Positions 2,559 to 4,738 are shown, counted from the first letter of the stretch. The stretch: 40,726 nt of DNA from Candidatus Microgenomates bacterium (GCA_015485895.1 WFSR01000062.1:1-40726), one strand, 5' to 3'. Program-made: numbers and translations. The notes: generated by a model from the sequence alone, not told the origin.

Positions 2559-3201
2559 GGGAAAAGAAAAAGTTACTTTAGCAACCAATTCAAAAGCAAA
2601 GAAAAATCACGGTAAACACTATCGCAAGGCAGCCAAATTAGTCAAAAAGGGCCGTTATTACCCTTTAGCCGAGGCTGTTGCTTTAGTTAAAAAAACATCA
2701 ATTTCTCATTTTGTTGGTAATCTTGAAGCTCATTTCGTCGTTCGTCAGGTGGGCAAATTAGGTGAAGTAAGGTTGCCTTTTGCCGGCGGTAAAAAGAAAC
2801 GAGTAGTAATCGCCGACGACAAAGTTGTCGCCGCTATTAAAGCTGGTAAGTTAGACTTTGATATTCTTCTCGCCAATCCAAAAATGATGCCCAAATTATT
2901 GCCCTTCGCCCGTGTCCTTGGCCCGCAAGGGCTGATGCCTAATCCCAAAAATGGAACTCTAACCCCCGATCCGGAAAAAGCCAAAGAGAAATTTAATCAG
3001 GCTGGGTTAACTTTAAAAACTGAAAAGAAAGCTCCCGTTCTGCATTTAATTATTGGTAAATTGGACCAACCGGATAAAGAATTAATTGCCAACCTTGAAG
3101 CAATTATTAATACTTTGGGGAAGAATAATATTCAAAAATTAGTTCTGACAGCAACCATGGGGCCAGGAATTAAAGTAACTGTTAATCAAGAGGCAAAGTA
3201 A
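2551..3201 (+). CDS. rplA: 50S ribosomal protein L1
   Basis: L1-like motifs ([28 protein letters not shown]). GGAGG lies 6 nt upstream of the ATG. Confidence 0.94.
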
Positions 3202-4186
3202 AACCAGTTTTTTTAGCTACCAACCGCCAAGTCTCCTGGGCATGTTTTTTAGCTTTCCGATTACCTTCTTCAAGAATAGCAGCAACCGCTTTTGGCTTTT
3301 TTTGCCAAGCTTGATAACGCTGTTGGAAATCAACCAAAAAGCGCCCCACGACCTGGCTAACAATCTCTTTAAGATGAACAAATTGCAGAGTGCCCTGAAA
3401 ATATTCCTGGCGCATGTTGGCCAGTTGTTCTTTTTCCTGTTTGTTGGCAAAACTTGCGCCAAGCAAGAAAAGGCTAGCTATCTCATCGCCCATTTTTTTC
3501 GGCGGCCGAGTTAAGGTCTCGGTCACCGCCCGACGGATTTTTTGTTGGGCCTGGACAGGACTGTCGTTAAGGAAAATTGCTCCTTGGGGACGGGACTTGC
3601 TCATCTTTCCCTGACCATCGAGAGCCATAATCTTAACTCCCCGGGTATGGTAAGGGTGAGGAATAGAAAAAAGGTGGCCAAAATGACGATTGAATTGACG
3701 AGCTAACAATTGACTAACCTCGAGATGAGCATCCTGGTCTTTGCCAACTGGGATATGAGTAGCCCGCTGAATAAGAATGTCGGCGGCCATTAGGGTAGGA
3801 TAACGAAGTAAAAAAAGAGATGCCCGACGTGGCTGGCGTACCTTTTCTTTTAAGGTAGGCACTCGTAATGCCTGAGCCACAGAAAAGAAACGGGAAAGAA
3901 AAATTTCTAACAATAAAGTTTTTTCGGCCAAAGCAGATTGGTAATAAATAATTGTCTTTTGGGGATCAACGCCGGCAGCCAAGTAAGTAAGGAGAATTTT
4001 CTCCCGATTAGCGGCTACTTTTTGGGGATCCTCAGTAGTAAGGCCATGGAGATCAGCAACAAAAAGAAAAAAAGGGTCGCCTTTCTCTTGAATAGTTAAA
4101 ACATCACGGATAGCACCAAGATAATTGCCCAGATGAAGAGCCTCAGCAGTAGGGCGCAGACCGGTGAGAAAAATATGCTTGGCCAT
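3182..4186 (-). CDS. trpS: tryptophanyl-tRNA synthetase
   Basis: Class I HIGH-type motif (LHLGNYLGAI) and KMSKS motif (GKMSKS). The start is taken at MAKHIFLTGLRPT because the longer ORF (to 4273) runs through a tRNA gene. The 3' end overlaps rplA by 20 nt. Confidence 0.9.
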   Translation of the reverse strand: MAKHIFLTGLRPTAEALHLGNYLGAIRDVLTIQEKGDPFFLFVADLHGLTTEDPQKVAANREKILLTYLAAGVDPQKTIIYYQSALAEKTLLLEIFLSRFFSVAQALRVPTLKEKVRQPRRASLFLLRYPTLMAADILIQRATHIPVGKDQDAHLEVSQLLARQFNRHFGHLFSIPHPYHTRGVKIMALDGQGKMSKSRPQGAIFLNDSPVQAQQKIRRAVTETLTRPPKKMGDEIASLFLLGASFANKQEKEQLANMRQEYFQGTLQFVHLKEIVSQVVGRFLVDFQQRYQAWQKKPKAVAAILEEGNRKAKKHAQETWRLVAKKTGFTLPLD

Positions 4187-4188
4187 AG

Positions 4189-4262
4189 TGGACCCGGTGG
4201 GATTTGAACCCACGATCTCCTCGATGCCATCGAGGCGCTCTAGCCAACTGAGCCACGGGCCC
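4189..4262 (-). tRNA. tRNA-Ala (anticodon GGC)
   Basis: The reverse complement folds as a 74-nt cloverleaf: GGGCCCG/CGGGTCC acceptor with G3:U70, anticodon loop AUGGCAU, GTTCAAATC T-loop and A73. No CCA is encoded. Confidence 0.9.
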
Positions 4263-4273
4263 TTGGGCATCAA

Positions 4274-4282
4274 AGTATCGCA
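4274..4282 (-). promoter_or_regulatory. extended -10 like box (TGcGATACT) 11 nt upstream of tRNA-Ala
   Basis: The minus strand reads TGCGATACT followed by 11 nt before G1 of the tRNA. Confidence 0.4.
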
Positions 4283-4337
4283 AAAATTTACTTAAAAATC
4301 AATGGGGATTGGGGCTAAGAACTAGGTCAAAAAAGCA

Positions 4338-4605
4338 CCAAATCCCAAATCACAAATTCCAATAACCAACCCCCCTTCTGTAGGGGCAGGCAAATCCTAA
4401 TTACCAAAATCCTAATCCGCCAGCTGGCGGACTAAACAAATTCAAATGACCAAAATTCAAATATTCAAAACATTTCTTTTTTCTTTATCTTTATTTTTGC
4501 ATTTTGTTTTGGTCATTTGGTCATTTAAATTTTGAACATTGTCTAGGATTTGGGTCATTAGGATTTAGGATTTGTGTGGGATTTGGAATTTGTGATTTGG
4601 AATTT
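4338..4605. repeat. AT-rich, strand-skewed imperfect palindrome built from degenerate 7-mers (AAATCCN / NGGATTT)
   Basis: The left arm is nearly G-free on the top strand (aaatcccaaatcacaaattcc..., caaattcaaatgaccaaaattcaaat). The right arm is its imperfect reverse complement (ttggtcatttggtcattt..., ggatttggaatttgtgatttgg). Positions 4413-4473 match 40319-40379 at 60 of 61 nt. Confidence 0.85.
4417..4430. repeat. perfect 14-bp GC palindrome CCGCCAGCTGGCGG
   Basis: An identical copy lies at 40323-40336. Variants CCGCCAGTTGGCGG (9459-9472) and CCGCCAACTGGCGG (40710-40723) also occur. Confidence 0.9.
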
Positions 4606-4724
4606 ACCCCAGCTCCGCCGGATGGTGGACATCGGAGTTTTGAATTTGGGTCATTAGAATTTAGAAGTTTAATAGGATAATGGAACGATGATAAGCTATC
4701 ATAGCTGGATGCTTTCAATTGCGC

Positions 4725-4730
4725 TATAAT
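4725..4730 (+). promoter_or_regulatory. -10 box TATAAT 8 nt upstream of the GT4 GTG start
   Basis: The sequence gcgcTATAATcaatcacgGTG shares the context gctataatcaa with the secE promoter. Confidence 0.45.
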
Positions 4731-4738
4731 CAATCACG

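Follow-up and report, generated by a model that had tools for sequence, protein, structure and literature searches.

A tRNA-Ala Gene Directly Upstream of trpS

The window, that is, the whole stretch of DNA analyzed here (40,726 nt), belongs to a genome of Candidatus Shapirobacteria that comprises 696,737 bp in 76 contigs, has a G+C content of 45%, and is 90.6% complete. On the minus strand of the window, a tRNA-Ala gene is followed after only 2 nt by trpS, the gene for tryptophan--tRNA ligase (TrpRS). The features of this region are listed below in the direction of transcription; G001 and G002 denote the two other genomes of the same genus.

4369..4436, minus strand: two terminator-like hairpins (4436-4411 and 4387-4369) within a repeat-rich intergenic region
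4297..4302, minus strand: -35-like hexamer TTGATT, separated by a 17-nt spacer from the -10 box, identical in G001
4274..4282, minus strand: extended -10 box TGcGATACT, the presumed promoter element of the tRNA-trpS unit, conserved in G001
4263..4273, minus strand: 11-nt stretch between the -10 box and position 1 of the tRNA
4189..4262, minus strand: tRNA-Ala(GGC), 74 nt, with G3:U70 and A73 (Rfam RF00005 and ARAGORN)
4187..4188, minus strand: linker from discriminator base to start codon, C74 (C at 4188) and U (T at 4187)
3182..4186, minus strand: trpS, 334 codons plus stop (open reading frame and profile matches)

Both genes are supported by profile matches. The tRNA matches Rfam family RF00005 (66.4 bits, E-value 2e-12, 4262-4189 on the minus strand), and ARAGORN reports a tRNA-Ala with anticodon GGC at 4188-4262. 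It has a cloverleaf, the G3:U70 identity pair, A73 (at 4189), and an alanine anticodon. The product of trpS matches the TIGR00233 profile (245.9 bits, cut-off 176.75, alignment from residue 4) and PF00579 (E-value 1.5e-49), contains both the HLGN (HIGH-like) and KMSKS motifs, and aligns with solved TrpRS chains over residues 1-330. It is the sole TrpRS match in this 0.7-Mb genome. The original prediction, which read A73, then CU, and then the AUG of trpS (4186-4184), is thus borne out by Rfam, ARAGORN, TIGR00233, and the sequence itself, and the abutment of the tRNA and trpS is confirmed.

The position of the trpS start is central to this arrangement. The ATG at 4186-4184 is the true one; the HLGN motif would be lost with any later start. 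Translation from a downstream codon, which had been considered in the original prediction as an outcome that would speak against it, is contradicted both by this motif and by the alignments that begin at residues 1-4. An upstream start was also considered, in which TrpRS would carry an N-terminal extension read through the tRNA from an in-frame ATG (4270) or TTG (4273). The frame is indeed open from 4273 through the tRNA, giving an ORF of 363 aa, and it is also open in G001. In G002, however, the linker is 1 nt longer, which places the tRNA in another frame that contains stops. The open frame through the tRNA is therefore best regarded as a chance effect, and the extension is contradicted by this frame shift. 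Moreover, only 3 nt separate the ATG at 4270 from the -10 box, which places this codon ahead of the point where transcription is expected to begin, and TrpRS families and solved structures align from residues 1-4 of the short form. We consider such an extension extremely improbable.

The trpS gene is flanked by a convergent rplK-rplA pair and, beyond the repeat-rich spacer, by a divergent glycosyltransferase gene. On the plus strand, rplA ends at 3201, and on the minus strand the stop codon of trpS lies at 3182-3184, so that the two genes overlap at their 3' ends by 20 nt (3182-3201); no terminator-like site was found between them. The intergenic region at 4283-4738 is made up of short repeated modules, including AAATTCCAAGCACCAAATTACAA-like and GGAACTAGGAGCTAGG-like runs. 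The same modules occur in the trailers of several tRNAs on other contigs (C11, C12, C19, C22, C46, and C56), often directly 3' of the tRNA gene. The two hairpins in this region lie upstream of the putative promoter and may insulate the tRNA-trpS unit.

Signals for Transcription and Translation

It had been proposed that the linker leaves no room for a promoter or a Shine-Dalgarno (SD) sequence and that the only plausible promoter lies upstream of the tRNA. Both points hold. The 2-nt linker cannot accommodate an SD, and no TAnnnT hexamer is present in the 45 nt before the trpS ATG in any of the three genomes of the genus. The only promoter-like element is found upstream of the tRNA: TGcGATACT at 4282-4274, which is conserved in G001 and replaced in G002 by a perfect TGTATAAT located 9 nt before tRNA-Ala. 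By our own count, TTGATT and TGcGATACT match 8 of 12 positions of the sigma-70 consensus, which is weak by generic criteria. A generic promoter scan of this region of the window listed no minus-strand site, the pair falling below its threshold, and the promoter call is made on comparative grounds only.

The location of this element is typical of the genome, as a TAnnnT -10 box ends 4-13 nt (mostly 7-9 nt) upstream of the tRNA in 23 of 28 tRNAs that are first in their units. With boxes at these distances from tRNA position 1, most tRNA transcripts would start at or near the mature 5' end. For tRNA-Ala, transcription would be expected to start within 4263-4273, leaving a 5' leader of a few nucleotides for RNase P.

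The layout of trpS is different from that of a primary leaderless gene, which has a -10 box close to its start codon. Among 26 other trpS loci, 12 have a TAnnnT box 4-9 nt before the start; trpS of this genus has none. One way to supply the missing signal would be a promoter within the tRNA gene, such as the T-loop TTCAAAT, from which trpS would be transcribed directly with only a short leader. The T-loop hexamer TCAAAT (TCAAGT in the congeners) shares four of six positions with a -10 box and ends 15 nt before the ATG. On the other hand, it lacks the A at position 2 of the -10 box that is always present in the TGnTAnnnT boxes of this lineage, and this T-loop is shared by many tRNAs. The absence of TAnnnT from the 45 nt before the ATG in all three genomes also speaks against an internal promoter, and the resulting leader of about 9 nt would carry no SD. 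We therefore regard an internal promoter as improbable.

The original prediction also pointed to a leaderless layout elsewhere in the window, and our counts agree with it. Of 39 ORFs in the window, 13 carry a TAnnnT 5-9 nt from the start and 4 carry an SD 4-mer. Genome-wide, with crude first-start calls, 83 of 585 ORFs have a TGnTAnnnT whose end is 5-9 nt away from the start (7 and 8 at control offsets), and SD 4-mers precede 49 of 585 (22 and 27 at control offsets). Judged by these signals, the genome uses leaderless-type starts heavily.

Taken together, it is very probable that trpS is cotranscribed with tRNA-Ala from the promoter of the tRNA. As the genome has only one trpS and the gene is essential, the present layout has to support its expression, and no other signal for its transcription was found in three genomes.

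Conservation of the Junction

The tRNA-Ala/trpS junction is kept in all three genomes of the genus with different linkers. In G001, whose TrpRS is 87% identical, the order is A73-CC-ATG, such that an encoded CCA shares its A76 with the A of the ATG. In G002 (TrpRS 67% identical), the linker is 3 nt long (A73-CCT-ATG). The trpS genes have been under strong purifying selection, with pN values of 0.077 and 0.229 in the two comparisons within the genus, and pS reaches 0.72, near saturation, against the pN of 0.077 for G001. As synonymous sites are close to saturation and the junction is still present, it has been kept through a long divergence even though its letters have changed. The tRNA-Ala itself is nearly invariant in the three congeners, with a compensatory change of C27-G43 to U27-A43 in G002, indicating that this tRNA is functional and no relic.

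Outside this genus, we did not find this arrangement at trpS. We compared 160 other trpS loci, collected by one scan of genome contigs and one of metagenome contigs, among which only the two congeners are close relatives. A codirectional tRNA within 300 nt upstream of trpS was observed at 2 of these 160 loci in public genomes and metagenomes, and both belong to the congeners. ARAGORN detected tRNA-Ala(GGC) at 17 loci of the order, the three loci of this genus being the ones that abut trpS; at the other 14 loci, no ORF of at least 100 aa starts within 150 nt of the tRNA. In a member of another family (L019, G007:C5), tRNA-Trp(CCA) and trpS are codirectional and about 40-50 nt apart, the tRNA lying upstream, and a TGTTAAAAT box is found in the interval. 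This is a neighborhood of a synthetase and its cognate tRNA.

The origin of this trpS gene may be unusual as well. The TrpRS of the genus is only about 35% identical to the usual TrpRS of the order, and its next relative (50% identical) is a second copy in G024. This genome, which belongs to another family, has two trpS genes (L004; G024:C11:186410-187369), one of which is 50% identical to the genus type and the other of the order type (34%). Thus, trpS of this genus may represent a gene replacement that landed behind a tRNA.

Other Junctions between tRNAs and Coding Sequences

How widespread such fusions are in this genome was a question raised together with the original prediction. A long ORF begins no more than 7 nt after position 73 in 3 of the 42 tRNAs, the three genes being trpS, dnaG, and a gene for a 239-aa protein. 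The remaining genes located behind tRNAs in the genome have their own -10 box or SD.

The dnaG gene, identified by its primase domains (Pfam), follows tRNA-Arg(CCG) with a 6-nt spacer (A73-CCGGAA-ATG; G000 C60:15258-15345, L038), and this tRNA has its own TGcTATACT 7 nt upstream in this genome. This gene offers the clearest comparison, made on loci from 30 genomes of the order, 27 from outside the genus and 3 from within it. At 26 of the 27 loci outside the genus, the start codon (ATG or GTG) is preceded by a TAnnnT box, often TGnTAAAAT, whose end lies 5-8 nt away, and no tRNA is present within 200 nt upstream. In all three genomes of the genus, the box is gone and tRNA-Arg(CCG) is found in its place. 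The spacers are 6, 6, and 17 nt, the last one in G002, which indicates that abutment is not strict.

The third gene encodes an Ig-domain membrane protein of 239 aa and lies behind a tRNA-Gly(CCC)-tRNA-Thr(CGT) pair (G000 C12:49510-49680, L039), with a 7-nt spacer after the latter (U73-CTTAGTA-ATG). In G001, the spacer is also 7 nt long and has a different sequence. In G003 and G004, which represent two other genera, the spacers are long, and in G003 a separate TGTATACT precedes the ATG of the gene by 5 nt. Neither the dnaG junction nor that of the 239-aa gene contains a promoter or an SD, and both are conserved in G001. These comparisons show that, in this genus, tRNAs stand where relatives have leaderless promoters (dnaG and the third gene). 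With spacers of about 5-7 nt, the products of the junctions other than trpS would be short-leadered and not strictly leaderless.

Among 43 tRNAs from 59 loci of other relatives, one further case was observed. In a member of another family (L011, G041:C1), a tRNA-Lys(TTT) with an encoded CCA is followed by AC and the ATG of a 205-aa ORF.

The tRNA genes of this genome can also be packed tightly against each other. Arrays with 0-6 nt between genes were found on C12 (61859-62175 and 66415-66876), C56 (3080-3325), C64, and C69; tRNA-Leu(TAA) and tRNA-Pro(TGG) share one base, and C74 of tRNA-Ser(GCT) lies directly against tRNA-Gln. In arrays as dense as these, RNase P cuts alone would nearly finish the 3' ends of the upstream tRNAs.

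Encoded C74 and tRNA 3'-Processing Enzymes

The observation that no CCA is encoded in tRNA-Ala is correct for this locus, where C74 only is present. C74, however, is encoded in every tRNA gene of the genus, and the full CCA is encoded in tRNA-Ala of G001. We analyzed the encoded 3' ends of tRNAs in this genus and in other organisms, with the following results for C74:

This genome: 42 of 42 (9 CCA, 15 CC without A, 18 C only)
G001: 44 of 44 (10 full CCA)
G002: 29 of 29 (6 full CCA)
Relatives, unique tRNAs at trpS loci: 38 of 38 (6 from congeners)
tRNA-Ala(GGC) loci detected in the order: 17 of 17
Sample of 29 further genomes of the phylum: 64 of 67 (42 full CCA; 22 of 25 without CCA)
Other phyla (control), tRNAs in the vicinity of trpS: 3 of 14

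C74 is thus present in 115 of 115 tRNA genes of the genus; in the window it can be seen at 4188 and 22321. C75 is encoded less regularly (24 of 42 in this genome, 26 of 44 in G001, and 14 of 29 in G002). The universal presence of C74 suggests a noncanonical pathway for tRNA 3' ends. It is possible that the precursor must carry C74 in order to dock to RNase P, whose RNA in this genome keeps a GGGU that aligns with the consensus GGGU. This stretch should contain the GGU of L15 that pairs with the tRNA 3' end (see PMC1874595). C74 is not treated in PMC5143459. Alternatively, C74 itself may be the point at which the 3' end is generated, either by a cut or by halted trimming, with CA then added by the CCA-adding enzyme.

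We then searched for the enzymes that might process these ends. The endonuclease implied by the mitochondrial analogy of the original prediction is RNase Z, and this part of the prediction was not supported: the RNase Z profile (TIGR02651) gave 0 matches in the genome (90.6% complete), and RNase E/G was not found either. In five relatives of the same family, the profile gave weak matches only, to frames of about 566-618 aa. These look like the RNase J gene, which is a 567-aa frame in this genome. A convincing RNase Z-like match was detected in 7 of 61 genomes of the order, all of which belong to another family (f5). A second MBL-fold ORF of this genome (C22, 297 aa, with a hydrophobic N-terminus) was considered as a divergent RNase Z and rejected, as it gave only weak Lactamase_B hits. 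RNB-type exonucleases (RNase R/II) were not found in the genome. With RNase Z and RNase E/G not found, the proposed cut at the tRNA 3' end is without a known enzyme.

Other components are present. The RNase P RNA gene is located on contig C72 (RF00010, 111.6 bits), and the genome encodes a CCA-adding enzyme with an HD domain, RNase J, PNPase, YbeY, and an S1-like protein. An RNase Y-like gene scored just below the family cut-off. Retention of rnj, rnc, and pnp in CPR bacteria is stated in a review-type analysis (PMC12641178).

Proposed Expression of the tRNA-trpS Unit

Based on these data, we suggest the following model. The sigma-70-type promoter at 4302-4274 would drive transcription of tRNA-Ala(GGC) and trpS as a single unit. 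Starting a few nucleotides before tRNA-Ala, this RNA would have its 5' end trimmed by RNase P. An endonucleolytic cut at the 3' end of the tRNA, after A73 or more likely after C74, would part the tRNA from the mRNA, and the CCA-adding enzyme would then complete tRNA-Ala. The trpS mRNA would be left with a leader of 1-2 nt (about 1-3 nt across the genus) and would be translated in a leaderless manner, independent of an SD and dependent on the 5' end, like many genes of this genome are predicted to be. Cotranscription, the cut and its position, and leaderless translation are all steps that we infer. On balance, we lean toward an endonucleolytic separation at the tRNA 3' end that yields a near-leaderless trpS mRNA, with less confidence than we place in cotranscription.

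The main rival is that no precise cut is made, and the fused RNA, or a form loosely cut by RNase Y, RNase J, or YbeY, is what is translated. In the fused RNA, the folded tRNA would cap the 5' end and keep RNase J from attacking it. The tRNA itself would be obtained only from the spent mRNA, which PNPase would degrade in the 3'-to-5' direction up to the acceptor stem until it stops at C74/C75, followed by repair of the end by the CCA-adding enzyme. The enzyme content of the genome fits this scheme, in that RNase Z, RNase E/G, and RNase R/II were not found and PNPase, RNase J, RNase Y, YbeY, and the CCA-adding enzyme are present. So do the encoded C74 (115 of 115) and the frequent C75, which would be expected if trimming stopped 1-2 nt past the helix. 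In addition, the abutting tRNAs (GGC, CCG, and CGU) are minor isoacceptors, and genes for U34 tRNAs (tgc, tcg, and tgt) are also present in the genome. With a U34 tRNA in the same family, inefficient maturation of the abutting tRNAs could be tolerated. The overlap of CCA and AUG in G001 fits as well, and it is a point against a precise cut: if CCA were the end of the tRNA, the A of the start codon would be removed.

Two arguments weigh against this rival. Binding of the 30S subunit or the 70S ribosome is poor next to a stable stem without an SD, and an AUG located 2 nt past a G+C-rich acceptor stem would be such a site. Furthermore, a linker of 2-3 nt in three diverged genomes is more easily explained by an AUG at the 5' end of the mRNA. 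We consider the reading without a precise cut rather unlikely.

Given the universal C74, the frequent C75, and the failure to find RNase Z, it is possible that the 3' pathway is exonucleolytic. Exonucleolytic maturation of the tRNA 3' end would consume the mRNA and release none. A cut by RNase P at a hairpin starting at the AUG was also considered, an idea drawn from PMC4176162 and PMC2811032. This was rejected, as the folding energies of the first 60 nt of the coding regions of 8 junction genes are within the range of shuffled sequences, the coding starts being no more structured than the shuffles, and no conserved hairpin was observed. A more specific version, in which an RNase Z-independent activity keyed to C74 matures the tRNA and makes the near-leaderless 5' ends of the trpS and dnaG mRNAs by one and the same cut, is offered only as a tentative suggestion. 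Such an activity would constitute genuine tRNA punctuation in this lineage of Patescibacteria, and the candidates that the genome offers for it are RNase J, RNase Y, YbeY, and RNase P, besides any unannotated protein.

Comparison with Known Systems

If our model is true, essential genes of this ultra-small, uncultured bacterium no longer have promoters of their own and rely on a tRNA gene twice, first to be transcribed and then, by way of tRNA processing, to obtain a 5' end that can be translated. The supply of tRNAs would be tied to the expression of a tRNA synthetase and a primase. The model would also point to a missing enzyme, given that RNase Z was not found and that most tRNA genes lack CCA and all have C74. 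In addition, it would extend the principle of mitochondrial punctuation to bacteria. For the annotation of these genomes, a start codon directly behind a tRNA should not be treated as an error.

To our knowledge, tRNA punctuation is a mitochondrial concept, and the bacterial tRNA-mRNA operons that we know of have long leaders that bear an SD. A full-text literature search found no description of a bacterial leaderless mRNA that abuts a tRNA and is made by processing. In Escherichia coli, thrU-tyrU-glyT-thrT-tufB is an example of a tRNA-mRNA operon with a shared promoter. There, the coding sequence is preceded by a long, SD-containing leader, and the transcript is cut by RNase E. By contrast, only 2 nt separate tRNA-Ala from trpS, an SD is lacking, and no RNase E/G was found in the genome.

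Leaderless mRNAs can also be produced from other transcripts by endonucleolytic processing, as reportedly shown for MazF in E. coli by Vesper et al. in 2011 (cited in PMC3848588). Our model resembles this system in that a leaderless mRNA would be generated by an endonuclease. MazF, however, is a stress toxin that cuts at ACA and leaves a 5'-OH, and it involves no constitutive layout tied to tRNAs.

Primary leaderless mRNAs are described for Actinobacteria, Deinococcus, and Mollicutes in several studies (PMC3848588, PMC4633059, PMC4014445, PMC4007540). The proposed trpS mRNA would share with these mRNAs a start codon at or near the 5' end and independence from an SD, properties that may hold for many genes of this genome. 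The difference is that the 5' end of a primary leaderless mRNA is the transcription start, with a -10 box 5-9 nt upstream, whereas trpS has no such box. As the box is lacking, the trpS end would be a processed 5'-monophosphate.

A partial parallel for the tRNA side is found in Propionibacterium acnes, which, according to PMC3848588, has no obvious tRNase Z and yet shows 3'-processing sites at tRNAs. The cuts reported for it include some between the two Cs of the encoded CCA, that is, after C74 (PMC3848588). P. acnes belongs to a different phylum, and the passages at hand do not link tRNA cuts to mRNA 5' ends.

The punctuation of animal mitochondrial transcripts by tRNAs, reportedly described by Ojala, Montoya, and Attardi in 1981, is a known system that the trpS locus resembles in its layout. 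The setting is different in several respects. The locus lies on a free bacterial chromosome that has many promoters and in which only 3 of 42 tRNAs abut a coding sequence; RNase Z (ELAC2 in mitochondria) was not found here; and the 5' side of the tRNA is occupied by a promoter and not by a gene. As in mitochondria, the tRNA abuts the coding sequence, with a gap in the range of 0 to a few nucleotides, a single promoter lies upstream, and excision of the tRNA would leave an SD-free, near-leaderless mRNA.
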